This document shows, in pieces, positions 1-13,722 of a stretch of 13,722 bases of DNA. The DNA is taken from the IMG/VR virus record IMGVR_UViG_2778261570_000018, positions 1 through 13,722 of that record; one strand, 5' to 3'. Each line of letters opens with the position of its first letter. The stretch's first letter is position 1. Under the pieces are notes generated by a model. The model did not search any database, was not told where the DNA came from, and saw nothing but the letters and a program-made list of their open reading frames with translations. This DNA comes from a virus. Lineage: Duplodnaviria; Heunggongvirae; Uroviricota; Caudoviricetes. Both the position numbers and the translations under genes were made by a program.

Positions 1-215
1 GTGCTGCGGATGATTTCCTGTCGGTGATTAACCCGGAATCGCTGGTGATCAAACAAGGCTTTGCTGAACCGTCGCTGAAAGAAGCGGTAGCGGGTAAAGC
101 ATTCCAGTTTGAGCGTGAAGGTTATTTCTGCCTCGACAGCCGCCATTCTACGGCGGAAAAACCGGTATTTAACCGCACCGTTGGGCTGCGTGATACCTGG
201 GCGAAGTTAGGTTAA
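1..215 (+). CDS. glnS: Glutaminyl-tRNA synthetase, C-terminal fragment (5' end lies outside the window)
   Basis: Frame 3 is open from the window edge and reads [71 protein letters not shown] recognise this as the C-terminus of enterobacterial GlnRS. Stop TAA is at 213-215. Confidence 0.9.
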
Positions 216-240
216 TAGGTATTTCGCCACATGAAAAAGT

Positions 241-265
241 AAACGCCGCTACTGCGGCGTTTTTT
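241..265. terminator. Intrinsic terminator shared by convergent glnS and the Dam-like gene
   Basis: AAACGCCGC (241-249) / loop TACT / GCGGCGTTT (254-262), followed by a T-run to 265. The reverse strand also has T-rich sequence after the hairpin (TTTACTTTTT). The stop codon of the minus-strand gene (264-266) sits inside the T-run. Confidence 0.75.
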
Positions 266-1169
266 ACTTCATTATTGCAATTATATCGTTAGCAACTACA
301 CGTGTTGACGCCTTGCAGGAAACCGACCGTCTGGCTGCCATATGATGTACTTTAAACCCGTTTCCTTCATATAGCTCACGGATGTTTGGAGCACCACTAT
401 TTGTTATCACTACCTTAGCGCCGCGCTGGTGGGCATCCACCAACAGTGATACAAGCCGTTTTTGTTCATCGAAACGGAAGCTATTTCCTGAATAGCTGGT
501 AAATCCCTCTGTATCCGGAAGCGGTTCATACGGCGGATCACAAAAAATCACATCGTCTTCACCAGCCGCCTCGATGACGCTAGCAAAGTCTCCTGATACA
601 AAGGAAGTGTTTTTGAGTACGTCATCAGCCAAAAATGCCTCCATCTCTGCATGTGGGAAGTAGGGCGCTTTGTATTTGCCATACCCCACGTTGAACTCGC
701 CATTTTGGTTGTACCGCGTTACGCCATTAAAACAGTGACGATTAAGGTACAAAAATGCGGCAGCATGATGTAGCTGGTCATATTTTCCTCTGTTAAATGC
801 CTCACGCACTTCGAGGTAAGCGTCAGCGTTGTTGTAATTTTTGAAAAAACTATATGACAGCGTGACGAGCGAATGTCCTTCTCGCTGCAATGTCTGATAG
901 AAGTTAATCAGGTCACCGTTAATATCATTAAGCAGGTTGTGGCGAAATCCTGCATTCGTAAATACGGAACCGCCACCAACGAATGGTTCTATTAACCGCT
1001 TACCGTGTGGTAGATGCTCAAGCACTGTAGGCAATTCTGAGAATTTACCACCTACCCATTTGAATATCGGACGCTCATATTCATCCGGAGTCCGAATGGT
1101 GCGCATATAGCTAATTTCAGCCATCGTATCCTGTTTTTCTATGGCTATGCTTGCTATAGATTTACTCAT
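264..1169 (-). CDS. dam: Dam-family (D12 class) DNA N6-adenine methyltransferase
   Basis: Motifs FKWVGGK, IEPFVGGGSV (SAM site), FLYLNRHCFNG, GEFNV and catalytic DPPY, colinear with E. coli Dam by eye. Start set at ATG 1169 (MSKS...), with a GGGGG SD 6 nt upstream and an ATGAGTAA overlap with the upstream stop. ATG 1124 (MAEI...) is an alternative. The 333-aa form in the ORF track would run through the upstream gene. Confidence 0.85.
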   Translation of the reverse strand: MSKSIASIAIEKQDTMAEISYMRTIRTPDEYERPIFKWVGGKFSELPTVLEHLPHGKRLIEPFVGGGSVFTNAGFRHNLLNDINGDLINFYQTLQREGHSLVTLSYSFFKNYNNADAYLEVREAFNRGKYDQLHHAAAFLYLNRHCFNGVTRYNQNGEFNVGYGKYKAPYFPHAEMEAFLADDVLKNTSFVSGDFASVIEAAGEDDVIFCDPPYEPLPDTEGFTSYSGNSFRFDEQKRLVSLLVDAHQRGAKVVITNSGAPNIRELYEGNGFKVHHMAARRSVSCKASTRVVANDIIAIMK

Positions 1170-1842
1170 AGAGCACCCCCTTATTCGCTTCGAAAACTGC
1201 CTTTGCGAATCCATGTGGAGTAGCACTTCGAAAATTAGCCCTGTCAGGCCCTGGTGGCGCGGCATGGATTCTGTTATCTGGCTTGCCTAATGATTCGTCC
1301 ATTAGGGCATCAGGCATGACAAAGCCCTGGCCGCTCCAGAGGCATGTTTTTTTGGTGTAGTTATCTTCCTGACAATATGCAGTGAAGAAGTAAGGGTGAA
1401 AGATGTGATCTGGCTTACGCCAGAATGTCGATATTTTGCTGACCGGATTTTCAATCATGTACGGACAACCGATCATCTTTGCAATGTCATAACACTGCCA
1501 GACAACCTGCATTGCTTTGAACTGGAAAACCGGATCTTTATTAGCCTTGTCCGAAAACCAGCGCGCGCCGGAAACAGCCAGGTCAGTACACGGTGGGAAC
1601 CCGGCCAGAAACACGATGCGCTGCAAATTCTTACGGAGAAAAGCGTATACTTCATCGCTATCGATGATCGCACTAATACGCGTCAGAACGGCACCTGATT
1701 GCATCCGCTCGTCACTGGTCGATAAGTGCTGTGGATCGACGATAGCGGCATCGACACCGTATTCCAGCCAGGGGGCAACCATTGCCCCCGTAAAATCACA
1801 AAGACTCACAACAAGCGGTCGGTTATTATCGTTCTGCTTCAC
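1162..1842 (-). CDS. Compact C5-cytosine-methyltransferase-like protein (about 226 aa)
   Basis: Motif IV-like [19 protein letters not shown] (PC catalytic dipeptide), motif VI-like MIENP, degenerate motif [10 protein letters not shown], and C-terminal [15 protein letters not shown] resembling motif X. Start chosen at GTG 1842, with GGAGG 9 nt upstream and a 17-nt overlap with the rdgC-like stop. The ATG at 1914 would lie deep inside the upstream gene. Confidence 0.55.
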
Positions 1843-2731
1843 CGCCAATGGCCTCCACCAGCGCGTTAAACAGTGCAGATAATTCGCCCGTAAAGAGCAC
1901 GAAATCAGCATCAAATCGTTGTGCTACATCCTCCCGGTCGATATCGTCGTTCTGGTCATAGAGATCATCACAGAATGTCAGGGCTTTGATACTCATATCA
2001 TCGTTGACTCTGAACGACGCACGGTCCATCCAGTTAATTGCAACGGTCGTAGCTACTTTCCCCGCCTCAATGTGAGACATAATCTCGTCGGACTGTAGAT
2101 CAACTTTGTTGCAGCGAACGGCACCACCATTATCGAGCAGACCCTTTAATGTGGCGTCTTCACCTGCTGTAAATCCGGCAGGGAAGCCGCTTTTAAACCA
2201 CTCGGTCATTGTAATTTCCAGCGGTTCGCGTGGTGTGAATGGAATGACAGGCAGGCTGCCGAGCGACTTTCGCAATAAAGCCAGCTGGTCCTCTGCCTTT
2301 TTGGCGCTGCTTGCCTCAACGAATACCAGATGGTTGCTGCGGTCGATCAGGATTTTGGCGAGTGATTTTCTCGTGAACGCGCGAGGCAAAAGTGAATGCA
2401 GGACTTCATCTTTAAGACTGTCTCTTTCCGTTTTCTTCAGCTTGCGGGCTTGCTCTTCTTCGAGTTTCAGGACTTTTTTCTGCAACTCTTCCTTGAGCAC
2501 CTGCGAGGGGAGAATTTTTTCTTCTCGCTTATGCTGTATTAGCAGAAAACCCTGGTATTCATGGGTGAGGTTGTCACCAAGAACAGGTGTCCAACCGACT
2601 TTAGCTGTGTCCTGAGAACCGCAAGGAGTAAACACGAATTTGCTAAGAGCATCGGATACTTCTGCGGCACTCCAGTTAACTTCACGTGAAAGACGATAGA
2701 TGAAGATGTTTTTGAAAGCGACTGATCTCAT
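1826..2731 (-). CDS. rdgC: RdgC-family recombination-associated DNA-binding protein (mobile paralogue)
   Basis: 301 aa, colinear with E. coli RdgC as I recall it. Shared blocks: [100 protein letters not shown] and a GGEA.R C-terminus. Confidence 0.9.
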
Positions 2732-2737
2732 GTTTCA

Positions 2738-2781
2738 CCAATTGTGTTAGAAAATTCTATTCAATTATCTAACACAATTGG
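2738..2781 (-). promoter_or_regulatory. Perfect 14-bp inverted repeat flanking a TAGAAT hexamer, between the spike gene and rdgC
   Basis: CCAATTGTGTTAGA (2738-2751) and TCTAACACAATTGG (2768-2781) are exact reverse complements, separated by a 16-nt AT-rich spacer. On the minus strand the spacer contains TAGAAT. The downstream arm overlaps the weak GGTGA RBS of rdgC. Confidence 0.6.
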
Positions 2782-2790
2782 ATGTGTTTT

Positions 2791-3444
2791 CTATCCCTTC
2801 TTGAAATCAAAGTTGCTTGCGATAGCCTGGAAGGTGCCTCCAGCCTTGAAATCAATATTTTCGTCGGCTGTCACAGTAATGTTTTTGCCATTAACGCTGA
2901 TGTTATCGGCTGATTTGACGTTAACACTCCCTCCCGCATTCACTACTACATCAGCCGGACCAATGATGTATATCTGCCCTGATTCATTCATTCCAATCCT
3001 TGAGCCTGCTGCCGTATTCGCTATTTCATATCCACCGCCAGCCGTTCGCACTTCGAGCACATTGTTGCGGTGAATCACGAAATCTTTTGTCGCCGAAAAT
3101 TGCGGGCGGGGAGGCGCTCCGTCTACTTCTGGTGGCGTCCAGCCGCTACCATTGCCTGACGCCTCCGGCGCGACGTTTGGTACTCCGCCAGGCGCATCCT
3201 GAGCTGCGCCAACTATCATTGGGCGTCTGGTATCAATTCGACCATTAACATCCAGATAAGGAAACTCTACCCATACCAGGTCGCCTTTTACTGTAGGTAC
3301 AAAAGCGTTTCCGATGGGTAACAGGTATTCCGCCCAGGGTAGATCGTCATCAGGAACGCCATTCCAGTCAGGTAAAACACGGACTTGAGCACGCATAAGC
3401 CCTGCCGGGTGCACAGTTCCAACAATTTGCGCTCTACGCTTCAT
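2791..3444 (-). CDS. Phage baseplate/tail-tip central spike (gp5 / gpV / VgrG-OB-like)
   Basis: The N-terminal pattern GTVHPAGLMRAQVRVLPDWNGVPDDDLPWAEYLLPIGNAFVPTVKGDLVWVEFPYLD...RPMIVGAA fits the gp5/gpV OB-fold signature. The C-terminus is beta-helix-like repeats (VNAGGSVNVKSADNISVNGKNITVTADENIDFKAGG). ATGA start/stop overlap with the upstream gene at 3441-3444. Confidence 0.65.
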   Translation of the reverse strand: MKRRAQIVGTVHPAGLMRAQVRVLPDWNGVPDDDLPWAEYLLPIGNAFVPTVKGDLVWVEFPYLDVNGRIDTRRPMIVGAAQDAPGGVPNVAPEASGNGSGWTPPEVDGAPPRPQFSATKDFVIHRNNVLEVRTAGGGYEIANTAAGSRIGMNESGQIYIIGPADVVVNAGGSVNVKSADNISVNGKNITVTADENIDFKAGGTFQAIASNFDFKKG

Positions 3445-4421
3445 TTGTTCGGCACTCCCAATATCATTCGTGTTGTGTAGCCTACGCGGTCTTCAAAGTG
3501 CGCAACATTTTTTACTATCAGCTTACGGGGCATTGATTCATCAATGCGGTTTTCCTGGTCATAGCGGTATACGATAATCTCTATCACCATTCCCGGTTTT
3601 ATATCAGGATTGCCTGCGACTTCTATATCCATTTTGGGGACGAGAGACAGCTGCATATTGCGAAGAGTTTCCATATCAGAGTCGGATATATAACGCACTG
3701 GGAGTGAGCTATCGCCATATTCGACGTAGCCATCGGTCATGGAATACCCAACAAAACGATATTGATTCTTTGCTGTTGTCGCATGTTCCTGTTGGAGTAG
3801 GCGCATTTTGGACAAAGTGTATTCTGCTTTAGGGTTATTCCCCTCGTAGGTAAATGATGGCGTTTGCTTCATCAGATCAGCCAGGGTGTAAAAGTTAAAT
3901 TCCCCCCGGCATACCCAACATAATGCACCTTTGTCTCGCGCTATCTCCGAAAGCATTTTTGACGGTTTGTCACCGGCATTCAGATGATATGTAACTGCGC
4001 GTTTTAGCACGCTGCTGGTAATTTTAAGTTTGCCGGAATATGCCTTGAATATAGCGTCTGGTGTTTTGTTGGTATGTAAATTTGTGCGCGGGGAGGGGAT
4101 CTTAAACCTGCGCACGTCTTCACTGACAGCAATAACGGTAACAACATCACCAGCCAGCATTGCAGACGTAACAAAGAAATCTGTTTTAAAAGTGCCTGCA
4201 TTACCGTTTGGATCGCCCATTTCAGCCACCAGCGATGCACCGTATTTGGCTTTCCAGTCATCAATTACGGTGCCGGTAGCGTCATGAATTTCCAGTTTTA
4301 GCAAAGGGGCTTTGAGGCTGGTTTTTTCTACATATACTGCGGTAAAAATCCAGTCTCGTGGCACTTTGTTATCGTTAATGAGCACTGACTGTAGAAAATA
4401 TTGTTGTAACTCCTGGGCCAC
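3441..4421 (-). CDS. Probable tail/baseplate hub protein (gp27 / P2 gpD-like), 326 aa
   Basis: Position immediately upstream of, and coupled to, the spike gene. There is weak by-eye resemblance to the gpD/gp27 layout (LKLEIHDATG...GASLVAEMG...GTFKTDFFV...VTVIAVSED, then KPSKMLSEIARDKGALCWVCRGEFNFY). GTG start at 4421 lies 3 nt after the upstream stop (TGATAAGTG). Confidence 0.4.
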   Translation of the reverse strand: MAQELQQYFLQSVLINDNKVPRDWIFTAVYVEKTSLKAPLLKLEIHDATGTVIDDWKAKYGASLVAEMGDPNGNAGTFKTDFFVTSAMLAGDVVTVIAVSEDVRRFKIPSPRTNLHTNKTPDAIFKAYSGKLKITSSVLKRAVTYHLNAGDKPSKMLSEIARDKGALCWVCRGEFNFYTLADLMKQTPSFTYEGNNPKAEYTLSKMRLLQQEHATTAKNQYRFVGYSMTDGYVEYGDSSLPVRYISDSDMETLRNMQLSLVPKMDIEVAGNPDIKPGMVIEIIVYRYDQENRIDESMPRKLIVKNVAHFEDRVGYTTRMILGVPNK

Positions 4422-4424
4422 TTA

Positions 4425-5192
4425 TCACCCCATAGATATCGAGGTTTCGGTAATAATACGTTTTGCGTCCAACTCCCATGCTGTGATCACGTCTGCAATC
4501 ACACTTATCGGCGCTTGTGTGGCATAAATACGCTCTTCTCCAATTGGTGCTGAAACATCCGTAAAGCCGACTTCTTTGGCATCCTGTATCGAGCAAATCA
4601 ACGGGACCGGGACACGAACAAGGTGAGTGGTGGCTTCAAATTGTGTACCTGTCATCAGGCGAAGCCGTGCGCCCAGCGAATTACACATCAGACTCATGGT
4701 CGCTTTATCAGTTGCCATTAACGTAACGTCATACGTCAGAATGGCCTGGGTGTATTCCAGTTCTGCTAAAGGCATTCCGGTATCCGGTTCGCAAAAACTG
4801 GCTACTTTTTTGCGGTCAATCTGCTGATCATCGTTGATATAATTGATATCCATAGTGCGTGAGATATTGACCAGGGGGAGAGCATCCCGGTTAATGTTCT
4901 GGTTTTCAGGTTTTCTCCCTTGCCCGGCATTTGCGCGACGAACTGCTTTAAGAAACTCGATCGCATTGTCGAAACGGGCCACATAGACACGCTCTGCTGG
5001 TGGACGATTCAGGAATGACGCAAAGCGTTTTTCTTCCGGCGCGGGGGCCACCAGTAAGATATCAGAAAAAATGTTGCTGATTAGCGTCGCAAACGCGTTA
5101 TCCACGTTTTCAAAGCCCGTGGTCTGGAATTTTCCTGTGCGTGAGGTTTGCCATTCACCTGTTCGCGCCAGGAGGGTTTTATTTGAAGTCAT
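4425..5192 (-). CDS. Hypothetical protein, phage-associated (255 aa), possibly tail-tip component by position
   Basis: Long ORF with a GGAG SD 7 nt upstream of the ATG and an ATGA overlap with the upstream gene (5189-5192). I recognise no motifs. Confidence 0.6.
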   Translation of the reverse strand: MTSNKTLLARTGEWQTSRTGKFQTTGFENVDNAFATLISNIFSDILLVAPAPEEKRFASFLNRPPAERVYVARFDNAIEFLKAVRRANAGQGRKPENQNINRDALPLVNISRTMDINYINDDQQIDRKKVASFCEPDTGMPLAELEYTQAILTYDVTLMATDKATMSLMCNSLGARLRLMTGTQFEATTHLVRVPVPLICSIQDAKEVGFTDVSAPIGEERIYATQAPISVIADVITAWELDAKRIITETSISMG

Positions 5193-5980
5193 TCGATCAC
5201 TCCGTTTTGAGTCGTATCAAAATTCCTGGCAGGTATGCAGTAGTAAAGCGAACCAACATGTTGTGTGCCGTAGCTAAAAATACGGTGCACGTACCACCAG
5301 CGGCGGGCTACGCCGTTTACCATCTCTTCATTCCATTCAAGAATTGATCCGACGGGGACTTTATTTGCTGCAATACGCAGAATCAGAACATCATCGGTTA
5401 AGCCATCCTGCTCACCGTCTGCGTCAATCGCATGGAAAGAGTCACGCCCGTCCGGGTTATCCAGCACATAAACGATTTCAGGTTCCTGGTAAGTCAGTTC
5501 GCGCTGGTTGTTATCCAGTTCAGTGAATGACTCTTCTCCTGTTTCGTCGCTGACTACCCCATATGTGCCAACATCTGGTCGATATAAGAGAGCCTGAAAC
5601 GCGTCTGGGCTGGATTCAATAATCAGCATCCAGTCTGCGCGGATTTGGTCGTTAAAGGCTTTATGCCCGTTATAGCGTGCTTTTAACTGTGGAGTCGGTT
5701 CTCTGCCAGCCAGGGAAGATGGAAGTATGGCTATATCTGATTCGCCAGCATCCGGAGTAAGGCCACCGTTGCTATCAGCAAAATTATCATGGCTATCAGC
5801 TTTGGCGGCGGGTTGCTCTTCCAGAATGCTGAATGAATCCGAACCGGTATTGCCATGTTCCGGCGCGCCTCCTGCATTCGCTTCAATCGGCGCTGGCGTT
5901 TCTCTCTGCGTGCTGTCATGTTCTGACTCCTTACTTGCCAGGTTTGCATCGTCAGCAAACCATTCGTCAAAACGGCCCAT
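5189..5980 (-). CDS. Hypothetical protein with acidic, low-complexity N-terminal region (about 263 aa)
   Basis: Long ORF. Start set at ATG 5980 (MGRFDEW...) because GAGGA lies 5 nt upstream. The track start at 5992 is a TTG. The N-terminal ~100 aa are D/E/S/P/A-rich and the C-terminal part looks globular (..RRWWYVHRIFSYGTQHVGSLYYCIPARNFD). Confidence 0.6.
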   Translation of the reverse strand: MGRFDEWFADDANLASKESEHDSTQRETPAPIEANAGGAPEHGNTGSDSFSILEEQPAAKADSHDNFADSNGGLTPDAGESDIAILPSSLAGREPTPQLKARYNGHKAFNDQIRADWMLIIESSPDAFQALLYRPDVGTYGVVSDETGEESFTELDNNQRELTYQEPEIVYVLDNPDGRDSFHAIDADGEQDGLTDDVLILRIAANKVPVGSILEWNEEMVNGVARRWWYVHRIFSYGTQHVGSLYYCIPARNFDTTQNGVIE

Positions 5981-6074
5981 AAGCATCCTCAAAGGTCGAT
6001 CTGTCAGGTATCGAAAGGAAGATTTTCGGGAGATTGTGATTTTGGATGAAGGAGGGGGAATTCATAAAATGCAC

Positions 6075-6103
6075 TTGCGCACAGTGCAACGGTGCGCTAT
6101 AGT
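6075..6103 (+). promoter_or_regulatory. Candidate sigma70 promoter and operator of higBA-1
   Basis: TTGCGC (6075-6080), 17-nt spacer, TATAGT (6098-6103). The spacer carries nested inverted repeats GCGCAC(6077-6082)/GTGCGC(6092-6097) and TGCAC(6070-6074)/GTGCA(6084-6088), typical of an autoregulated TA operator. Confidence 0.55.
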
Positions 6104-6142
6104 TATGGCATTCAGTAATCCTCACGGAGGATCAAATGGCTA

Positions 6143-6445
6143 ATGACCAAAAAAATTAACATAAAGGATTTCAGGGATGCGTGGCTTGATGATTTTTTTG
6201 AATTTTCAACACCACATAGAAAGATACCTCCTGATATTCATATGACATTGTCACGGAAGTTGGACATTATCAATGCCGCAACTACCTGTAATGATTTAAG
6301 ATCACCACCAGGTAATCGGTATGAGGAACTGTCAGGGAAGCTAAATGGCTATTCATCAGTAAGGGTGAATAAGCAATATAGGTTAATTTTTAAGTGGGTT
6401 AACGGAAAGGCCGAGGACTTGTATCTCGACCCTCACAAATACTAA
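6143..6445 (+). CDS. higB: HigB-family (RelE/ParE superfamily, 'killer protein') type II toxin
   Basis: 100 aa. Contains RSPPGNRYEELSGKLNGYSSVRVNKQYRLIFKWVNGKAEDLYLDPHKY, characteristic of HigB toxins. It is followed by a cognate HTH antitoxin (toxin-first order typical of hig loci). Confidence 0.8.
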   Translation: MTKKINIKDFRDAWLDDFFEFSTPHRKIPPDIHMTLSRKLDIINAATTCNDLRSPPGNRYEELSGKLNGYSSVRVNKQYRLIFKWVNGKAEDLYLDPHKY

Positions 6446-6452
6446 AACAGAT

Positions 6453-6471
6453 ACCCGGTTACGAACCGGGT
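6453..6471 (+). promoter_or_regulatory. Intercistronic hairpin between higB-1 and higA-1
   Basis: ACCCGGT (6453-6459) / loop TACGA / ACCGGGT (6465-6471), a perfect 7-bp stem within an unusually long 70-nt toxin-antitoxin spacer. No T-run follows. Confidence 0.45.
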
Positions 6472-6515
6472 TCTGACCAGAGTCCACTTAATACGCACGC
6501 TAGTAAGGGCAAAAA

Positions 6516-6854
6516 ATGAAACAGGCAACCAGAAAACCGACGACCGTAGGTGATATCCTGCTGTACGAATACCTGGAGCCGTTAGAGCTGAAGATCAACG
6601 AGTTAGCAGAAATACTTCATGTTCATCGTAACACCGTAAGTGCTCTTGTTAATAATAATCGTAAGCTAACGATGGATATGGCATATCGCCTGGCAAAAGC
6701 ATTCGATACTTCTGTAGATTTTTGGATTAATCTTCAGACCGCAGTAGATCTGTGGGAAGTCGAAAATGATATGCGCGTTCAGGAAGAGTTAAGTCGTATC
6801 AATACTGCTGAAAAATTTATTTCTCAGCGGAACCTGAATAAAAAAGCAGCCTGA
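6516..6854 (+). CDS. higA: HigA-family (VapI/XRE HTH) antitoxin
   Basis: 112 aa. TVGDILLYEYLEPLELKINELAEILHVHRNTVSALVNNNRKLTMDMAYRLAKAFDTSVDFWINLQTAVDLW is the classic HigA/VapI HTH pattern. AAGGG SD lies 6 nt upstream. Confidence 0.85.
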   Translation: MKQATRKPTTVGDILLYEYLEPLELKINELAEILHVHRNTVSALVNNNRKLTMDMAYRLAKAFDTSVDFWINLQTAVDLWEVENDMRVQEELSRINTAEKFISQRNLNKKAA

Positions 6855-6873
6855 TATAGTAAAACACATACAA

Positions 6874-6905
6874 AAAGCCCACTTAGCAAGTGGGCTTTCC
6901 TTTGT
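6874..6905. terminator. Intrinsic terminator after higBA-1 (bidirectional shape)
   Basis: AAAGCCCACT (6874-6883) / loop TAGCA / AGTGGGCTTT (6889-6898), followed by CCTTTG. The A-run upstream supplies a U-run for the opposite strand. Confidence 0.75.
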
Positions 6906-6910
6906 AATTA

Positions 6911-7270
6911 ATGAACATTAAACCCATCCGTACAGAACAAGATTATGAGGCCGCACTGCGTGCGGTCGAACCGATGTTCGATAACGAACCGGAAATGAAT
7001 ACTCCGGAAGGTGATTTCTTTGAGGTTATGAGTCTTCTCATTGAGGAGTACGAGAAAAAACATTACCCAATTGAGCCACCATCACCTATTGAGGCCATTA
7101 AATTCCGTATGGAACAGCAAGGGCTGACCGTGAAGGATCTGGAACCGGCAATTGGTAAGTCAAACCGTGTTTACGAAGTGCTTAATGGGACACGAAATTT
7201 GACGTTACCTATGATTCGTCGTTTACATGCCCAGTTTGGTATTCCACTGGAAAGCCTGGTTGGCGTTTGA
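6911..7270 (+). CDS. Orphan HigA(YgjM)/COG5499-type HTH antitoxin-like regulator
   Basis: 119 aa. The N-terminal domain is MNIKPIRTEQDYEAALRAVEPMFDNEPEMNTPEGDFFEVMSLLIEEYEKKHYPI. The C-terminal HTH is IEAIKFRMEQQGLTVKDLEPAIGKSNRVYEVLNGTRNLTLPMIRRLHAQFGIPLESLV. This is the same architecture as E. coli HigA (YgjM) as I recall it. No partner toxin of the matching family is adjacent. Confidence 0.75.
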   Translation: MNIKPIRTEQDYEAALRAVEPMFDNEPEMNTPEGDFFEVMSLLIEEYEKKHYPIEPPSPIEAIKFRMEQQGLTVKDLEPAIGKSNRVYEVLNGTRNLTLPMIRRLHAQFGIPLESLVGV

Positions 7271-7275
7271 GTTTT

Positions 7276-7300
7276 GCGGTCTGGATGACCGCTGTTTTTA
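7276..7300 (+). terminator. Intrinsic terminator after the orphan HTH gene
   Basis: GCGGTC (7276-7281) / loop TGGAT / GACCGC (7287-7292), followed by TGTTTTTA. Confidence 0.65.
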
Positions 7301-7333
7301 TAAAAAATAGATACTAGAAATTTGGTAGCATAT

Positions 7334-8113
7334 ATGAGTACAGATTCATCAGTAAAGAAGACATCTGAATCAGATAAAGAAAATGAGTCCGTTGTTGATT
7401 CCGTCAAGAATACAATGGAATATGTTATAAAAGACAAAGTATTTAATAAGCTTTTTGCATATATTTTTATATCTTTTCTGGTTGTTAACTGGAGAGATAT
7501 ATTAATTTTGTTCAAATCAAAAGAAGATGTTCTATATACTCTGTCAATAGTTTTTACCGGTGAAAAAATACAATTTCTTGATGGCGAGATTTTACCTCCT
7601 TGGTTTGCCCACTTTTTCTTGCCGTTTTTCTATGGTGTGATTGCGTCGATTGTGGCACCAGTAATTACACTTGCGGTATCTTGCATTACAACTAAGGTGT
7701 ACTATAAAATAAAAATTTTGGACAATAAAACAGACGAAAACGAGAAAGAGAAATTAGCAAAAAGAGCCAAGAAAAGAGCTGAGCGTGAAATAGAGGCTAG
7801 CTATAGCCAACAAAAGCTGGATGAAAGAAAAAAAGAACTGGAAGACATTTTAAACAAAATAGAAGATGAAAAAGAAAAATATGATAAAATGAAAGAAAGG
7901 TTTGATGATGCCATAACGCTTACATATAAAAATATTCACATTTTGCCTACTCTGTATGAGAATAGGAAATGTAAAATTGAAACTCCGCAGGATTTATATG
8001 ATTTTATTGCAGCAATAAAGAAAACATCATTCTATAGTACTGATTTTAATGAATTGTTCTCTGATATTTCTCGATTGTATTCTGAAATGCAAACTGATTT
8101 ATCAGAAAAGTGA
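7334..8113 (+). CDS. Hypothetical membrane-anchored coiled-coil protein (about 259 aa), no recognised family
   Basis: Uninterrupted ORF in very AT-rich DNA. ATG 7334 is preferred; the track start at 7322 is a TTG. It has hydrophobic segments LFAYIFISFLVVNWRDILILF and WFAHFFLPFFYGVIASIVAPVITLAVSCI. These are followed by a K/E/R-rich heptad-like stretch (KEKLAKRAKKRAEREIEASYSQQKLDERKKELEDILNKIEDEKEKYDKMKERF) and a ~65-aa C-terminal region. Confidence 0.6.
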   Translation: MSTDSSVKKTSESDKENESVVDSVKNTMEYVIKDKVFNKLFAYIFISFLVVNWRDILILFKSKEDVLYTLSIVFTGEKIQFLDGEILPPWFAHFFLPFFYGVIASIVAPVITLAVSCITTKVYYKIKILDNKTDENEKEKLAKRAKKRAEREIEASYSQQKLDERKKELEDILNKIEDEKEKYDKMKERFDDAITLTYKNIHILPTLYENRKCKIETPQDLYDFIAAIKKTSFYSTDFNELFSDISRLYSEMQTDLSEK

Positions 8114-8114
8114 A

Positions 8115-8137
8115 AGCCTGGCATAGACCACCAGGCT
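8115..8137. terminator. Hairpin shared by convergent genes 7334-8113 (+) and 8149-9342 (-)
   Basis: AGCCTGG (8115-8121) / 9-nt loop / CCAGGCT (8131-8137). T-rich sequence follows on the minus strand (TTCACTTTTCT) and more weakly on the plus strand. Confidence 0.5.
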
Positions 8138-8148
8138 ATATGTGTGGT

Positions 8149-9342
8149 TTATGCTTTTTTTACATACGCCATAAACATTTTTTCAGCATGTTCTTGTGGC
8201 GTTCCTGCCATGACAAGCGCATCAATGAACGCCTGCTTCTTCAGTGCGAACTGATCGGCCAGGCGTTGCTGAAGCTCCTTGTTTTTCTGTTTCTCACGTT
8301 GCAACGCCGCTTCTTTTGCTGCCGCCCGTTTTTTCTGTGCGTCTGACAACTTTCTGGCCTTGGTCAGTTGGTCACGTAGCTTGTCAATCTTGCCGTTGTC
8401 CTTTGCCAGTTTTGTGCTTAAAGCGGCCTGGCGCTTCTGATAGAGCCTCCATTCTCGCTTGGCAGCGTCAACGTTCGTTTTACTGCTACGATTGCGATTA
8501 AACTCCTTCTCGTCTTCTTTTGAGAAGTGTTTGGTTGTACGGCGGCGATCGTCACCAAATGCAATTTGCGTTGCAGCCTTTTGTAGCGCACGAGCAATAC
8601 TCATTTGCCAACTGGCGGACTGTAACCGCGTCATTGAGTGGATCACGTGTTTACAGGCGACGCCTTGCAGCTTCGGGTTGCGAACTTTTGGATAGGCGTA
8701 TTCTTTTGGCGGTGCCAGGGCAAAGTTACCCGCAGTGGCGATGTAACGATACCAGTATTGATGACGACCACAGTCACAATCGAAAGACACTCGCCCGGCG
8801 CACAGTGATTTAGTGATTTTGAGAGCTGATTTATCGTCTTCTGCGATGTCATCAACCATCTGATCCCATTCTTCAAAGCGTATCCGGACGATATGGTGCT
8901 GGTGGACGGATATATCCGATGCTTCTACGCGGATATTAATCACATTGTGGCGAAGAGATACGGGTGTAGCTCTTTTGATACCAGATCCGTCATCCACGGC
9001 GTTATTTGCACGCTTAATATCGATAGCCTGGCTGGATGCCACCAGCTGGGCGTATGTGATGCCAGCCGTCTTGCTGTCATATTTTTCGCGCGTTTTACTC
9101 CGTAGCTTTTCGAAGCCTTTCAGATCGTCTCGCGTAAAGAACGTGCCGCCTTTTTTCTTCCCTAACTTGAGAATATCTTCGACGGATTTGTTCCTAAGTC
9201 TGCCTGGCGTCAGCGTCCGGTGAGCTTGTCGGCGCTTACGGGTTTGTTCTTTCCTGATAAGGTCGAATAAACGCGTGAAGTCCTTAGAGGACAGACCGTC
9301 AGTGATATAGCGCCCGTCCTGGTTTTTCAGGAAATCAGGCAT
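8149..9342 (-). CDS. Phage-associated protein with SWIM-like CxC...CxH zinc-finger motif and lysine-rich coiled-coil C-terminus (397 aa)
   Basis: FDCDCGRHQYW...(38 residues)...GVACKHVIH resembles a SWIM finger with an expanded linker. The C-terminal ~110 aa are K/R/Q/A-rich heptad-like. GGAG SD lies 7 nt upstream, and there is an 8-nt overlap (ATGCCTGA) with the upstream gene. Confidence 0.5.
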   Translation of the reverse strand: MPDFLKNQDGRYITDGLSSKDFTRLFDLIRKEQTRKRRQAHRTLTPGRLRNKSVEDILKLGKKKGGTFFTRDDLKGFEKLRSKTREKYDSKTAGITYAQLVASSQAIDIKRANNAVDDGSGIKRATPVSLRHNVINIRVEASDISVHQHHIVRIRFEEWDQMVDDIAEDDKSALKITKSLCAGRVSFDCDCGRHQYWYRYIATAGNFALAPPKEYAYPKVRNPKLQGVACKHVIHSMTRLQSASWQMSIARALQKAATQIAFGDDRRRTTKHFSKEDEKEFNRNRSSKTNVDAAKREWRLYQKRQAALSTKLAKDNGKIDKLRDQLTKARKLSDAQKKRAAAKEAALQREKQKNKELQQRLADQFALKKQAFIDALVMAGTPQEHAEKMFMAYVKKA

Positions 9343-9664
9343 TTTCTATCTCCGGTTCCGCGCTCGCGTAATCACGGATCTTGTTCCTCAGCCATGCCAC
9401 ATCAGGAAGAGTTAACGTGGTCCCGGCGGGCATTTCTTCCATTTCTGACTCATGGCCCACCAGCACCCGGAATACCCAGCGCAAATCTGCATTGCCATAC
9501 GCCCTGTAGGCTGCAAGGTCTGAACGATATACTTCATCAATCTTTATCGTGTACTGGAAATTATCAGAGTGATACTCCGATACCCGCTTAATCATTTCCT
9601 GGTGAAACAGCGCACGAAAAATATCGTCTTCAATGTACCTATCGTCGAGTCTGCTATAGCCCAT
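9335..9664 (-). CDS. Hypothetical protein (109 aa), coupled to the SWIM-like gene
   Basis: ORF with a GAGGGG SD 7 nt upstream of ATG 9664. It overlaps the start of the downstream gene. I recognise no motifs. Confidence 0.55.
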   Translation of the reverse strand: MGYSRLDDRYIEDDIFRALFHQEMIKRVSEYHSDNFQYTIKIDEVYRSDLAAYRAYGNADLRWVFRVLVGHESEMEEMPAGTTLTLPDVAWLRNKIRDYASAEPEIENA

Positions 9665-9726
9665 AACAAAGCCCCTCAGTCATAACCTGGGGGAAACTGT
9701 ATGTAGGGTGTGAAATGCGAGAAAGC

Positions 9727-9750
9727 AGCGTCACCGGGCCTGGTGACGCT
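9727..9750 (-). terminator. Hairpin/terminator after higBA-2
   Basis: AGCGTCACC (9727-9735) / loop GGGCCT / GGTGACGCT (9742-9750), a 9-bp stem. On the minus strand it is followed by GCTTTCTCGCATTTC (moderately U-rich). Confidence 0.5.
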
Positions 9751-9756
9751 GTGAAG

Positions 9757-10038
9757 TTATGCGTGGAAAAATAATGGACGGATGTTTGGGCGAGCGGTTT
9801 GCGAAGCAACCCAAAGCTCATACTGAGATTGCATACCGGTCCACATTTCGGCACTGGTTCCAAGAGCGGACTCCAGACGAAGTGCCATATCAGCAGAAAT
9901 GCCTGCTTTTTCGTTCAGAATTCGGGAAAGTGCCGTGCGAGTAATGCCTAATGCAGCAGCGGCGTCTGTGACTGACATGTCTCCCAAATATTCACGAAGA
10001 ACCGCGCCAGGATGCGCGGGATTATGCATACGACTCAT
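9757..10038 (-). CDS. higA: HigA-family (VapI/XRE HTH) antitoxin, second copy
   Basis: [76 protein letters not shown] is the canonical HigA/VapI pattern. ATG 10038 has an AGGA SD 5 nt upstream. The track start at 10050 is a TTG overlapping the toxin stop. Confidence 0.85.
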
Positions 10039-10046
10039 AGTGTTCC

Positions 10047-10328
10047 TCAATGATAATCCTGATAGTCAACTAGAATTGCGTCTTCTCCTTCAAATCGGAA
10101 GGTAAGTCGCCAGTTACCGTTTACCGATATTGCCCAGTGACCTTTAAGGTCCGCCCCCTTTAGAGGGTGCAATTCCCATCCAGGCGCAGACATATCGTCC
10201 GGGCGTTTAGCTGTATTAAGAGCAGTCAATTGAATGCGTAGCTTAACCGCATGTTTGGCCTGAATGCCTGCGGTTGAACCTGTCTTGAAAAAGCGTTCAA
10301 GCCCTTTATGGCGAAATGACTTAATCAA
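10047..10328 (-). CDS. higB: HigB-family type II toxin, second copy
   Basis: (L/M)[39 protein letters not shown]...[40 protein letters not shown] matches the HigB 'killer protein' pattern, which normally begins MIKSF. I therefore place the start at TTG 10328 (GGATGGA upstream) rather than at the track start 10391, which lies in the promoter. Confidence 0.8.
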
Positions 10329-10354
10329 AATAATTCCATCCGTGCGCGTAACCT

Positions 10355-10391
10355 GTGTATATACACTACACGCAGAGGGAGCGAAATGCAA
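10355..10391 (-). promoter_or_regulatory. Candidate higBA-2 promoter with perfect 12-bp palindromic operator
   Basis: Minus strand: TTGCAT (10391-10386), 17-nt spacer, TAGTGT (10368-10363). The perfect palindrome GTGTATATACAC (10355-10366) overlaps the -10 hexamer. Confidence 0.5.
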
Positions 10392-10529
10392 GCACTATCC
10401 GTATAGACAGAGTTTCTTCGCCGCCCTGGAATTTATTGACTGTCAACAAGTGACTTTCATTAATCTTAAGGCATGGACCAGCTCGATAGTGAGCTGGGTG
10501 TTATTTACCGATCGAATGGATTCGAAAAG

Positions 10530-10664
10530 ATGAATATTTTTAATAAGCTGATTGATTTATTGAATAAATTCATTAGTGCTTCTTTAACTCAGCAGGTATC
10601 CACGTCAGTGTTTTTGTTACTCTTCTACCTGGTATTGAGGGAGTTAACAAAGCTACTAATGTGA
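10530..10664 (+). CDS. Possible small hydrophobic peptide (44 aa; 63 aa if started at 10473)
   Basis: MNIFNKLIDLLNKFISASLTQQVSTSVFLLLFYLVLRELTKLLM has a C-terminal hydrophobic helix. The DNA is AT-rich, the SD is weak, and the stop abuts the stop of the convergent 217-aa gene. It could be a chance ORF. Confidence 0.2.
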   Translation: MNIFNKLIDLLNKFISASLTQQVSTSVFLLLFYLVLRELTKLLM

Positions 10665-11318
10665 TCAAAGTATCACGGTATCTTCATCAACTTCTTTCCC
10701 AGCCAGTGACTTTGGCTGGGAACTGCCTGCTTTAACTTTTTCATGCCCAATAATGGAAAGGAACGAAGTGAGTATGCCTGTTTTTTGCTCTTTCTCGACT
10801 GTACCGGTCATCTGCTCTACGTAATCCGCACTGGCAACGTTGTGGTATACGGTCGCGTAGCAACACAGGATCATCAGAATATGCTCCGGCCTGATATCCT
10901 GCCAGTTCACCCTGTAGACTTCTTCTCCGTTACCGTTGTATTCGGTATCAACGATAGAGTCGGGGATTTCGAAAGCACCTTTGTTATTTTGCGGCAGGGA
11001 TAATAGCTTCTGGAGTTTTAACTCTCTGTATCTTTCCATCCCGACGATGATTGCTGCTCTGCCATCGGCATGACGGGTCTTGAGAGTCACCTGGCTTGCT
11101 CCGGTGCCAGCGGAGATCGTTGGCGTAATTTCGTCTACCAGTACCTTAAATTTGCTTTTCCGCAGGGCTGCTATAGCTGGAGGAATTTTTTGCTTTTGCT
11201 CCAATGCTGACGCGGGAAGGGGTTTTACTTCGTTAATAATGAGAGCACCGTCTTTCAGTATTGCAGTGAGCATTTGAGGCTTGCTGGTGGTCAGGCTGAA
11301 TATTGCGATCTTTTCCAT
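10665..11318 (-). CDS. Hypothetical phage-associated protein (217 aa)
   Basis: Start set at ATG 11318 (MEKIAIFSL...), with GGAGAAAGGA immediately upstream. The track start at 11360 lies inside the upstream terminator. I recognise no motifs. Confidence 0.6.
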   Translation of the reverse strand: MEKIAIFSLTTSKPQMLTAILKDGALIINEVKPLPASALEQKQKIPPAIAALRKSKFKVLVDEITPTISAGTGASQVTLKTRHADGRAAIIVGMERYRELKLQKLLSLPQNNKGAFEIPDSIVDTEYNGNGEEVYRVNWQDIRPEHILMILCCYATVYHNVASADYVEQMTGTVEKEQKTGILTSFLSIIGHEKVKAGSSQPKSLAGKEVDEDTVIL

Positions 11319-11344
11319 TGTCCTTTCTCCACGGATGACGGATA

Positions 11345-11370
11345 CAAAAAAAGGCCGCACATGGCGGCCT
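11345..11370 (-). terminator. Intrinsic terminator reading on the minus strand, directly upstream of the 217-aa gene
   Basis: GGCCGC (11353-11358) / loop ACATG / GCGGCC (11364-11369). On the minus strand it is followed by seven U (A-run 11346-11352 on plus). Confidence 0.7.
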
Positions 11371-11392
11371 GCTTTGGCGTTATGACTCCCTA

Positions 11393-11450
11393 CCGCGCTT
11401 CGGCTGAAAGTTAATCGTCAAAAGAACCTTCAACGGGAGCCGTTAGCGCG
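11393..11450. repeat. Imperfect long-range inverted repeat (13-nt arms, 32-nt spacer)
   Basis: CCGCGCTTCGGCT (11393-11405) against AGCCGTTAGCGCG (11438-11450). The CGCGCT/AGCGCG and CGGCT/AGCCG blocks pair, with a 2-nt internal mismatch. Confidence 0.5.
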
Positions 11451-11586
11451 ATGGATTATGTGCAGTTTGTGATTTCCAAAATAGTGTCAACTACTTTTTG
11501 TGGATTTTATTTTTTGTCCGAAATTTGGCCTAAATCATGTTGATTTGGCTGATTATTTTTATAACATAAAACTTCATTTTGTTTAC

Positions 11587-12216
11587 ATGAAGGACGGTGT
11601 AGTGAAGTTAAGGGTTTTAGGGACCGCGCTCGCGGCTATGTTGGGATGCGTATCTGTTAATACTGCCAATGCAACTGCGTTACCTGCAAAGTATTGGGCT
11701 GGTGTGAAAGTGTTGCGGAACGCTGAAAAAGGCAATACAGCTGATGATATTTTCAAGTTTTGCCAAAAAGAAAATATCCCTCTGCACCCGGTTGAGCCGT
11801 ACTTTACAGGAAAGAATGATTTCTGTGTGTTTGCGTATACCGCAGACCAAACAGATAAGGCTATACGCAAGACAGGGTATTCTACTCAAGACACTATGGC
11901 GTCCTTAAGTAAAAACTGGTTGCAGTTTGAGGTTTACCGTAGTGAAGGAATGGGAGAGCTATTGCAGCCACTGTATATGCTGGCGTTAGTTCCGGAAGGG
12001 CAGCAGTTCCTTATTCGAAAAGGAATGCTTCGGAAAAGCGATGTAACCGGATTCAATAACACGATGGAGCTTGAACGCTCAATGAAGCAAAAGCAAGCGC
12101 CTAAGCAGCCAACAGCCGAATGTATTAGCAGCGAGATACAAAAGGCATTAAGCGAGCAGCCTTACATTGATCGTGGTGTGGCGGAAATGGCTGCCAAAAT
12201 GAAGTGTTCCAATTAA
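11587..12216 (+). CDS. Secreted protein or lipoprotein of unknown function (about 209 aa)
   Basis: Signal peptide (M)KLRVLGTALAAMLGCVSVNTANA, with a possible lipobox MLGC or SPase I site ANA-T. Start is ATG 11587 or GTG 11602 (AAGGA 7 nt upstream). The track start GTG 11500 adds an implausible AT-rich leader. Confidence 0.6.
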   Translation: MKDGVVKLRVLGTALAAMLGCVSVNTANATALPAKYWAGVKVLRNAEKGNTADDIFKFCQKENIPLHPVEPYFTGKNDFCVFAYTADQTDKAIRKTGYSTQDTMASLSKNWLQFEVYRSEGMGELLQPLYMLALVPEGQQFLIRKGMLRKSDVTGFNNTMELERSMKQKQAPKQPTAECISSEIQKALSEQPYIDRGVAEMAAKMKCSN

Positions 12217-12259
12217 CGTCAAATAGAATAACAAGATAGTAAATTTTGGAGTTAATGAA

Positions 12260-13081
12260 ATGTTCTTTATGAAAAATGGAAAAAGATTTTCCGCAACAAT
12301 GCTTGCTACTATTGTCGCTCTTTTCGTTCCCACATTCACCTTTGCTTATGATTTTAGCAAAATTGACTGCAATGCCCCTAAAACCAGGCAGATGTTAATC
12401 GATGATTATAATGAACTACTCAAGGACGATCAGGAAGCAATCACTGTAATTGATGCTTATAATCAGATTAATGAAATAAGCGAAAAAAGTAAGCTCCAAT
12501 GTTTAGGCACGTATGAGTTCTCAGATGGAAGTGCGCTTAGAGTTAGATATAAGTTATATTTAAATAGCCTCGGCACACCCATATATGAATTTGCTCCAGT
12601 TGAGGAATTAACGCAGGATGATGTAAGCGCATCTATTCAAAATATCCCTGCAACCACAGCGAGTAGGACTGGGGGGAATGAAGAAACGTATGCCTGCAAG
12701 GTGGCTGTAACTTACAAGGGGGAGCGTTCTAACTATATGGGGGATTCCGGAACATGGGATCGTGTGATTACTGACTATGGCACTTATTTTTCATGGGATT
12801 TACCACGCGGAAACCGAGGCAACAGCACAGGTCAGGATGCTTTTAGTGGCATGGACGAATCAAAGCCTGTATTAGAAAATCAGCTAGTGAGAAAGGAAAC
12901 TGAAAAAGATGGTAGCGTGGTTGATGAGTTTAGGACAGAAGTGAGTTATGGAGATAAACAACCGGTACATAAGTTTGTATATGCCCGTAGAATAAAACCT
13001 ACAGGAACGAGAGAATATTATGTCACTGATTTGACGGACAAGCGGGCATTTATGTTTCTGAATTGCCAGCAAGATTCGTAA
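12260..13081 (+). CDS. Secreted protein of unknown function (273 aa)
   Basis: GGAG lies 8 nt upstream of ATG 12260. Signal peptide MFFMKNGKRFSATMLATIVALFVPTFTFA-YD. I recognise no family. Confidence 0.6.
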   Translation: MFFMKNGKRFSATMLATIVALFVPTFTFAYDFSKIDCNAPKTRQMLIDDYNELLKDDQEAITVIDAYNQINEISEKSKLQCLGTYEFSDGSALRVRYKLYLNSLGTPIYEFAPVEELTQDDVSASIQNIPATTASRTGGNEETYACKVAVTYKGERSNYMGDSGTWDRVITDYGTYFSWDLPRGNRGNSTGQDAFSGMDESKPVLENQLVRKETEKDGSVVDEFRTEVSYGDKQPVHKFVYARRIKPTGTREYYVTDLTDKRAFMFLNCQQDS

Positions 13082-13086
13082 TTGAT

Positions 13087-13117
13087 AAAGCAGGCTTAAC
13101 GACTAAGCCTGCTTTTT
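13087..13117. terminator. Strong intrinsic terminator between convergent genes
   Basis: 12-bp stem AAAGCAGGCTTA (13087-13098) / loop ACGAC / TAAGCCTGCTTT (13104-13115), with the T-run continuing to 13117. Confidence 0.8.
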
Positions 13118-13122
13118 GAATT

Positions 13123-13473
13123 TTACTCGGTAATAGTTTTGCAGTTGTTTTGGTTTAAGACCAATCCAAGTTTGCTGGCGGCCAACTCATTTTCTGTGTG
13201 AGAGCCAGCAAATACAAATCCTTGTTTTATCTTATTTACGGTGAAATATTTATTGTATATAAATGCCCAGACAAGTGAAGCTACCCAAGGACCAATTCCT
13301 GCAGTGAGGAATGCCAGGATTAGCATCACAACGAACACCCCGATGAAAGTTATAAAGTCTTTCCTGAACAAAGCCGGGAAGGCACCAAAAAAGAACGTAG
13401 TCCAGGAGAATCCATAAAAGCCTGAGATGGACTCGCCTGTCCGAGGATTTTCTAAGTTAATTTTAGTAGCCAA
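13123..13473 (-). CDS. Small inner-membrane protein (116 aa, two hydrophobic helices; DUF2628-like impression)
   Basis: GFYGFSWTTFFFGAFPALFRKDFITFIGVFVVMLILAFLTAGIGPWVASLVWAFIY. TTG start at 13473 has an AAGGA SD 9 nt upstream. The family call is only an impression. Confidence 0.55.
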   Translation of the reverse strand: MATKINLENPRTGESISGFYGFSWTTFFFGAFPALFRKDFITFIGVFVVMLILAFLTAGIGPWVASLVWAFIYNKYFTVNKIKQGFVFAGSHTENELAASKLGLVLNQNNCKTITE

Positions 13474-13530
13474 AGTTATTCATCCTTTAACGTAAAAAAA
13501 CAAATAATTATAAAGCTGTGTGAGTGTGCT

Positions 13531-13559
13531 ATTTTACTAATCTACACTATGTTATGCAA
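13531..13559 (-). promoter_or_regulatory. Near-consensus sigma70 promoter for the small membrane protein gene
   Basis: Minus strand: TTGCAT (13559-13554), exactly 17 nt, TAAAAT (13536-13531). Confidence 0.6.
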
Positions 13560-13600
13560 TTTATTGGTATCATGCCCCGGCCTGACCGGGGCAAAAGCTA

Positions 13601-13722
13601 TTAACTAACAATCCAGTCCGTAGCAACAACATCCTCTGGAGCTAAATCAATAGCATGGATTTTCCCATCCCGGATAGTGCGCCAGTGCTTTCGTGATCCA
13701 CCTTCGGGCCACACCCATATAC
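13601..13722 (-). CDS. 3' end of an ORF continuing beyond the window (39 codons seen); C-terminus reminiscent of DUF2829
   Basis: The minus strand reads ...IWVWPEGGSRKHWRTIRDGKIHAIDLAPEDVVATDWIVS*, open to the window edge. The ending LAP.D..A.DW.IV resembles the DUF2829 C-terminal pattern (..W.PS..D.LADDWEIV). This fragment is too short to be sure. Confidence 0.3.
   Translation of the reverse strand, partial: IWVWPEGGSRKHWRTIRDGKIHAIDLAPEDVVATDWIVS

Follow-up and report, generated by a model that had tools for sequence, protein, structure and literature searches.

In this work, we focus on a gene that we term TMcc, which is carried by a window of 13,722 nucleotides (the whole stretch of DNA analysed here) from a virus of the Caudoviricetes (IMG/VR record IMGVR_UViG_2778261570_000018, positions 1 to 13,722). 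The coding sequence of TMcc occupies positions 7334-8113 on the plus strand and comprises 259 codons and a stop; its product is found in RefSeq under WP_032323278.1, as a hypothetical protein. The original prediction, which was made from the letters of this DNA, had drawn the open reading frame (ORF) from 7322 to 8113 on the plus strand. The ORF itself is borne out, but position 7322 is an in-frame TTG, and we corrected the start to the ATG at 7334, which is backed by the RefSeq entry and by the conservation of the N-terminus MSTDSS in other alleles of the gene. The composition of TMcc is deviant, with a GC content of 30.9% (27% at third codon positions), compared to 45.2% for the whole window and 49-50% for the flanking genes 7 and 25. 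The sliding windows of 7200-8200 are the lowest of the window (GC 0.31-0.33), and this was rightly described from the start as its most AT-rich stretch. The same bias is found in all the TMcc alleles, whose GC content ranges from 29 to 34%. Despite this AT-richness, TMcc is a true coding gene, and not an ORF that arose by chance, because it is under purifying selection, with a ratio of nonsynonymous to synonymous substitution rates (dN/dS) of about 0.2.

The backbone in which this gene is embedded can be readily recognized. The region 6000-9500 of the window matches Escherichia coli plasmids of about 90 kb, with an identity of up to 99.9% for pAPEC201603, and plasmids of this type carry P1-type tail, baseplate, mat, icd and ref genes. 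The same gene order is found in Escherichia phage D6, whose annotation describes the flanking genes as similar to genes 7 and 25 of P1. The window therefore belongs to an E. coli phage-plasmid that is D6-like and related to P1. On the left, the accessory cassette is flanked by the conserved homologue of P1 tail gene 7 (5189-5992, minus strand) and on the right by the conserved homologue of P1 tail gene 25 (8149-9342, minus strand), which converges on TMcc. The plus-strand cassette (6143-8113) thus faces the minus-strand gene 25 homologue, and the convergence of transcription that had been proposed at this place is real.

Two hairpins delimit the gene, as had also been proposed. The upstream one (7276-7292, plus strand) lies between TMcc and a gene for a helix-turn-helix (HTH) protein, and consists of the GC-rich sequence GCGGTC-N5-GACCGC, then TGTTTTTAT, which is intrinsic-terminator-like. 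Its stem is 6 bp long with 5 GC pairs (dG -11.9, z -3.1). The downstream one (8115-8137) has a 9-bp stem, is common to the convergent transcripts of TMcc and gene 25, and is a stronger terminator in the minus-strand direction. These two hairpins form the left and the right edge of a variable segment. A GC-rich hairpin is in fact found after each of the plus-strand genes of the cassette (6453-6471, 6874-6898, 7276-7292 and 8115-8137), and 14 terminator-like sites were counted in 6000-9500, versus 3.2 expected from shuffled sequences. The cassette looks as if it had been assembled from separate gene-plus-terminator units.

The variability of this segment is the most striking feature of the locus. 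In a tblastn comparison of 29 loci, TMcc is always flanked by the homologues of genes 7 and 25 and immediately follows a HigA-type gene on its 3' side. When the window is compared at the DNA level, in sliding windows, to D6 and to the loci L008 and L023, the flanks are 98-100% identical, while identity falls to 30-80% over TMcc, and the bounds of this drop (about 7300-8150) are exactly between the two hairpins. At least nine allele groups, with 30-79% protein identity, were found in D6-like backbones that are nearly identical to one another. The synonymous divergence between alleles (dS) is 0.7-1.4, and the dN/dS is about 0.2, close pairs included, with a range of about 0.1-0.5 over all comparisons. 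The alleles are therefore old and functional and have been swapped through recombination, rather than being junk or the product of recent hypermutation.

TMcc is also variable in its very presence. It is absent from pF719-4, in which the rest of the cassette is kept, and from the P1-group elements. Among the plasmids of PLSDB, a full-length TMcc was found in 98 records, compared to 115 plasmids that carry a D6-type gene 25. It is frameshifted in the loci L010 and L027, it is split by an IS5-family transposase in Klebsiella IncFIB plasmids in which HigBA is intact, and many of its database entries are truncated. The allele of the window is a rare one, found in 3 of 5,426 complete E. coli genomes and on plasmids every time. 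Some relatives thus have the gene and others lack it, at a site flanked by conserved genes, and the initial description of TMcc as an accessory gene in a prophage (here, phage-plasmid) cassette stands. Two of the traits by which a moron is recognized, namely presence/absence and a deviant nucleotide composition, are found in TMcc. The cassette has also travelled outside of phages, since a HigB-HigA-TMcc cassette is carried by large non-phage plasmids (locus L006, 6013-7809, of the Klebsiella pneumoniae plasmid p3IncF, and about 55 similar IncFIB plasmids). The proteins of this p3IncF-type cassette are 95-99% identical to those of the cassette of an Enterobacter D6-like phage-plasmid, which is a case of gene flow from phage-plasmid to plasmid.

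We will now detail the protein. All the elements that had been read in its sequence are found again: an acidic and Ser-rich N-terminus (residues 1-30 are rich in Ser, Asp and Glu), two hydrophobic segments (residues 40-60 and 89-122), a charged heptad-like stretch (residues 123-200, with 22 K+R and 21 D+E of 78) and a C-terminal region of about 55-60 residues. An AlphaFold2 model built from an alignment of 32 sequences reached a mean predicted local distance difference test (pLDDT) score of 80, compared to 55.7 with an alignment of 5 sequences. It consists of helices at 19-36, 39-51, 53-61 and 66-75, followed by a small hairpin (79-87), by one unbroken helix at 89-210, in which the second membrane helix runs into the coiled coil (pLDDT 92-98 over 110-190), and by a small C-terminal helical bundle (218-253). 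Conservation among the nine allele groups is very unequal along this architecture. The membrane module (codons 33-125, positions 7430-7708) has a mean pairwise identity of 59% and contains the helix 39-61, the KSK motif at 61-63, the short helix 66-75 and the hydrophobic helix 89-122. The charged coiled-coil helix (codons 126-205, positions 7709-7948) is the most variable part, with a mean identity of 24%, and the C-terminal helical domain (codons 206-259, positions 7949-8110; helices 218-230, 232-235 and 238-253) has a mean identity of 35%.

In 32 sequences that are 17-63% identical to the window protein, three residues (N52, P97 and P109) never vary and two more (S47 and G101) hardly do; N52 is the first residue of a polar NW[QRKE][NDEH] motif that lies midway along the first hydrophobic helix. 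The original prediction of a membrane-anchored coiled-coil protein holds for the membrane and for the coiled coil, but the idea of a mere anchor does not, as the membrane part is the most conserved one. This conservation, together with the invariant polar and proline residues, makes the membrane part more than an anchor and probably the working end of the protein. The pattern of conservation argues that the membrane part would do the work while the cytoplasmic part varies. A buried Asn is known to drive the association of membrane helices, and the buried N52 and the long coiled coil suggest that the protein may oligomerise. As for its orientation, Lys and Arg add up on average to 3.6 in the 20 residues at the end of the N-terminal part, to 2.4 in the loop and to 4.0 in the 20 residues that follow the second membrane helix, and these positive-inside counts weakly favour an N-in/C-in topology.

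The gene had initially been placed in no family. This remains true in the sense that no family with a functional annotation was found, but TMcc is not a strict orphan. It belongs over its full length to PHROG 8191, whose function is unassigned (E=7e-91), and all 32 aligned relatives match the same PHROG; weaker matches were obtained with PHROGs 13369 and 4780, which are also without assigned function. An exhaustive profile hidden Markov model search of 1.84 billion cluster representatives yielded only 51 proteins at E<=1e-3, most of them with 205-270 residues and the architecture of TMcc. The named clusters that we looked up are all from Enterobacteriaceae (E. coli, Salmonella, Klebsiella, Enterobacter and Citrobacter), and every relative that bears a name is labelled as a hypothetical protein. 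No significant family match for TMcc was found in Pfam, NCBIfam, PADLOC, PDB and BFVD, the Pfam scans of the 32 relatives gave only coiled-coil and hydrophobic noise, and species-representative genomes scanned with the family pattern contained no relative. Likewise, a literature search with the accessions, the PHROG identifier and the third genes of HigBA modules returned nothing on this family.

A Foldseek search with the AlphaFold2 model gave no confident match either, the best hits being P-loop channels with two transmembrane helices (E=3-8, probability <=0.08). We considered a cation channel of this kind (NaK/KcsA/Kcv-like) and rejected it, with TM-scores of 0.12-0.25 and a loop 61-88 that has no GYG/GFG motif.

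The contexts of the relatives are diverse. A Klebsiella relative lies in P2-like prophages, between gpV and gpS, where no other gene is on the plus strand. This is the S|V (orf30) site, which is one of the three canonical moron sites of P2 (PMC6823313). At the same Klebsiella P2 site, the locus L031 carries on its minus strand (5833-6576) a gene of 247 codons whose only Pfam signal is a sub-threshold match to HNH_5, and which may correspond to the 741-bp ORF16 of phage R18C (PMC6823313). Other relatives are found in the nin region of a lambdoid prophage, antisense to the phage genes, in an island that also encodes a DNA methylase, DUF4942 and H-NS, next to a WYL regulator, in a chromosomal islet of Enterobacter, and downstream of TacAT on plasmid-like contigs of Citrobacter and Salmonella. 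In the locus L042, a relative starts 11 nt downstream of a gene for a DUF4145 protein (4309-4989, plus strand) that matches the PADLOC model PD-T7-4 (E=4.8e-13). These two genes of L042 are on a resolvase-flanked element and could form a two-gene unit in that lineage. We looked for a conserved partner gene and rejected the idea, as the neighbours that were scanned had no Pfam family in common, and the two 149-aa genes that follow the relatives of L034 and L036 bear no relation to one another. No partner gene is conserved across the contexts of the relatives, and TMcc is independent of any partner; the single-gene unit that had been supposed from the window is a reasonable view.

The genes that stand upstream of TMcc in the window are a HigB-like toxin (PF05015; 6143-6445, plus strand), its HigA antitoxin (6516-6854, plus strand) and the HTH protein of 119 residues with a C-terminal HTH_3 (6911-7270, plus strand). 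The HigB/HigA pair and this HigA-type HTH protein, together with another pair, of RelE/HigA type (9757-10391, minus strand), confirm that toxin-antitoxin (TA) modules are close to TMcc. When the cassette proteins were compared by tblastn to the 29 loci, the genes upstream of TMcc were found in at least three configurations. In the D6-like elements L023-L025, L027 and L028, there is no first HigB/HigA pair, and the 119-aa HTH gene directly follows a gene for a K-12-type HigB-like toxin, whose promoter has its own palindromes. The window HTH protein shows 29% identity to the HigA partner that an Enterobacter phage-plasmid carries. From this identity and from the pairing with the K-12-type HigB elsewhere, the HTH protein of the window is an orphaned HigA-type antitoxin. 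In the window, the K-12-type toxin is replaced by the unrelated PF05015 HigB/HigA pair. The HTH gene is cut to 65 codons in 11 loci, and the DNA-binding domain of its product (residues 63-115) is thus lost.

Taken as a gene, then, TMcc is very probably a genuine, selected, stand-alone moron that encodes an inner-membrane coiled-coil protein. What it does is a more delicate question. The hypothesis that we find best supported is phage exclusion or abortive infection (Abi), although we hold it tentatively and with somewhat less than even confidence. This role would be consistent with the occupation of moron sites in three types of temperate phages (D6-like, P2-like and lambdoid), with the presence/absence polymorphism, with a deep allelic diversity that is confined to one gene, with the junction of a conserved membrane module to a variable cytoplasmic part, and with the company of TA modules and of one defence-gene neighbour. 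In this scenario, an AT-rich foreign accessory gene would have been inserted antisense between two tail genes of the D6-like phage-plasmid, and its expression in the plasmid-prophage state would probably be low, driven either by a weak promoter of the gene itself or by transcripts of the constitutive HigBA/HigA genes that read through the weak terminator behind them. The conserved two-helix module would place the protein in the inner membrane, with the long charged helix and the small C-terminal domain most likely in the cytoplasm, and oligomerisation would probably take place through the coiled coil and the invariant Asn of the first membrane helix. The lysogen would then be protected against other phages, the membrane module acting as the effector, either by blocking genome entry at the inner membrane or by opening a leak that aborts the infection, while the hypervariable coiled coil and the C-terminal domain would set which phage gets recognized. 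A bolder version can be proposed, in which TMcc would be a new single-protein and allele-specific anti-phage family that spans P1/D6-like, P2-like and lambdoid moron sites, its oligomeric membrane module (N52, P97 and P109) being a pore or entry block gated by a cytoplasmic sensor, and its nine alleles being phage specificities under balancing selection. Taken as a whole, this version is doubtful.

Several known systems can be compared to TMcc. SieB of lambda and P22, an Abi-type protein, is also small and prophage-encoded, with N-terminal membrane helices, a basic cytoplasmic region and a C-terminal domain, and lambda sieB is likewise a stand-alone gene on the strand opposite to its neighbours. 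TMcc differs from SieB by a coiled coil of about 80 residues, by another set of conserved motifs and by the lack of any sequence relationship that we could find. We thus rejected membership in the SieB family, for which Pfam gave no match at E<=10. Morons within tail clusters often encode exclusion proteins, such as gp15 of HK97, Cor of phi80 and N15, or Fun/Z of P2. These are known as accessory insertions in the tail clusters of temperate phages, with a patchy presence, and as envelope proteins, which they have in common with TMcc, but they are much smaller or are lipoproteins, and they have no long coiled coil. No link between TMcc and HK97 gp15, Cor or Fun/Z appeared in the PADLOC and PHROG scans, which were the sole sequence comparison made for them. 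At the anti-phage hotspots of P2-like phages and P4 satellites, membrane proteins are regarded as Abi effectors, a role in which such proteins are common (Rousset et al. 2022, PMC9122126). Like the TMcc locus, these hotspots are small, lie between two conserved phage genes and have a high turnover in conserved genomes. They differ in that unrelated systems are swapped there, whereas the TMcc locus hosts one family with many divergent alleles, and the TMcc relative of P2-like prophages occupies the S|V (orf30) moron site and not the cos-adjacent hotspot.

A number of observations weigh against an exclusion or Abi role. No known defence or exclusion protein was found to be homologous to TMcc: the search of PADLOC-DB 2.0 gave no significant match for TMcc (the best was AbiLii, with E=0.74 and 8.4 bits), and the alignment by hhalign of the 32-sequence profile with one lambda SieB sequence had a probability of 0.2%. 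A recognized defence gene adjoins a relative in only one of seven independent contexts. There is no sign of positive selection at the scale of the gene, where the low dN/dS carries no arms-race signature, and coiled coils diverge fast simply because they tolerate substitutions. The orientation of the protein in the membrane depends on a positive-inside signal that is weak. In the 40-nt leader of TMcc, no promoter stands above chance, the regional count of promoter-like sequences being that expected by chance; the best candidate, read by eye, is TTGCGG-N18-TATAAA. Finally, a terminator-like hairpin stands upstream of TMcc, whose expression in the lysogen is thus putative.

Part of these observations could also be explained if TMcc encoded a lysogenic-conversion membrane protein, that is, a moron exchanged between elements for a benefit unrelated to phages, such as tolerance to envelope stress, colicins or antimicrobials, or colonisation. 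The evidence for an accessory moron applies equally to this case, in which the absence of defence-family homology, the confinement of the family to gut Enterobacteriaceae (for the named clusters that were looked up) and the lack of a recognized defence gene in most of the neighbourhoods would all be expected. But nine divergent alleles at one locus in near-identical backbones are more typical of the specificity determinants of a conflict than of a general fitness factor, and the prophage moron sites, the TA modules and the one PD-T7-4-like neighbour lean to a conflict between elements, so that we regard such a conversion function as possible but unlikely. The frequent pseudogenes (the two frameshifts, the insertion sequence (IS) and the many truncated database entries), the weak ribosome-binding site and the want of a clear promoter could also evoke a decaying or selfish passenger with no selected function. 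This is very improbable, as dN/dS stays within about 0.1-0.5 throughout, close pairs included, ORFs of equal length have stayed intact in alleles whose synonymous sites are saturated, and invariant residues are kept in a family whose members are as little as 17% and at most 63% identical to the window protein.

The position of TMcc suggests two other explanations. In the cassettes of Enterobacter and Klebsiella, as in all D6-like elements, it lies directly 3' of a HigA-type HTH gene of the same strand, an arrangement that spans two different HigB/HigA pairs, and one relative is just downstream of TacAT, as if TMcc were the third component of the HigBA/HigA module, i.e. a membrane toxin or output under the control of the upstream HigA-type HTH protein. 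We consider this improbable. The commonest allele (242 residues) is intact in the 11 loci whose HTH gene is truncated, the HTH gene is kept without TMcc in pF719-4, HigBA is intact where the IS splits TMcc, and the P2-like, lambdoid and island relatives have neither an HTH nor a TA neighbour. On the basis of the truncated-HTH and IS-disrupted configurations, we rejected TMcc as the toxin partner of the orphan HigA. We also rejected the hairpin 7276-7292 as an HTH (HigA) operator that controls TMcc, since the palindrome between the HTH gene and TMcc is unlike the operators at the cognate higB promoter (architecture B), which has different palindromes. The insertion of the gene in the tail and baseplate clusters of D6-like and P2-like phages, together with a weak match to the Pfam family Phage_holin_6_1, would rather evoke an accessory of the phage life cycle (holin, antiholin, lysis-timing factor, or helper of injection or assembly). 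This, too, is very improbable. The holin match (E=0.011, 16.6 bits) is under the 24.9-bit cut-off and is not among the commonest matches of the 32 relatives, and it was rejected; moreover, TMcc runs antisense to the late genes, viable relatives lack it, as do all the P1-group elements, it has homologues in non-phage islands and in a chromosomal islet, and no lysis gene is next to it in the window.

The rest of the window provides a few additional observations. The second TA pair consists of a RelE/ParE-type toxin (about 10047-10391) and a HigA-family antitoxin (9757-10050), both on the minus strand, between gene 26 and mat. At the equivalent place, D6 has only two tiny ORFs, and this is therefore another variable accessory site. 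A second low-GC patch (about 0.35-0.40) contains two plus-strand genes of unassigned function, at 12260-13081 and 11500-12216, which match PHROG 13054 and PHROG 12786. At the corresponding place of D6, after mat and on the same strand, lies a gene annotated as similar to P1 simB (superimmunity), and the two genes are, by their position only, possibly another candidate exclusion-related moron. The homologue of P1 gene 24 (4425-5192, minus strand) is one intact ORF of 255 codons in the window, while in pAPEC201603 (L001, 6427-7193) the annotation splits it into two genes, of 142 and 106 codons, and past 9500 the ORF coordinates of the window are out of register with those of this plasmid. The window is thus another member of the group than pAPEC201603. 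No known RNA family was found in the window.

The D6-like phage-plasmids are common in E. coli of clinical and animal origin, and about 115 plasmids of PLSDB carry a D6-type gene 25. In the stretch that we examined, the TMcc locus is the sharpest hotspot of diversity, with one family and many divergent alleles in almost identical genomes. The family is an uncharacterised one that neither Pfam nor the defence databases contain, while the kind of gene that it represents, a prophage moron and candidate membrane exclusion factor, is familiar. The sharply bounded allelic series makes the exclusion hypothesis directly testable. If TMcc has another function, it would still be a conserved and selected lysogenic-conversion function that lacks annotation. 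If it does exclude phages, a new family of membrane effectors, absent from the current defence databases, would join the arsenal of prophages, and it would come with a compact natural series of alleles in which to map how specificity is encoded. This would bear on the prediction of host range in phage therapy, as well as on the competition between mobile elements.

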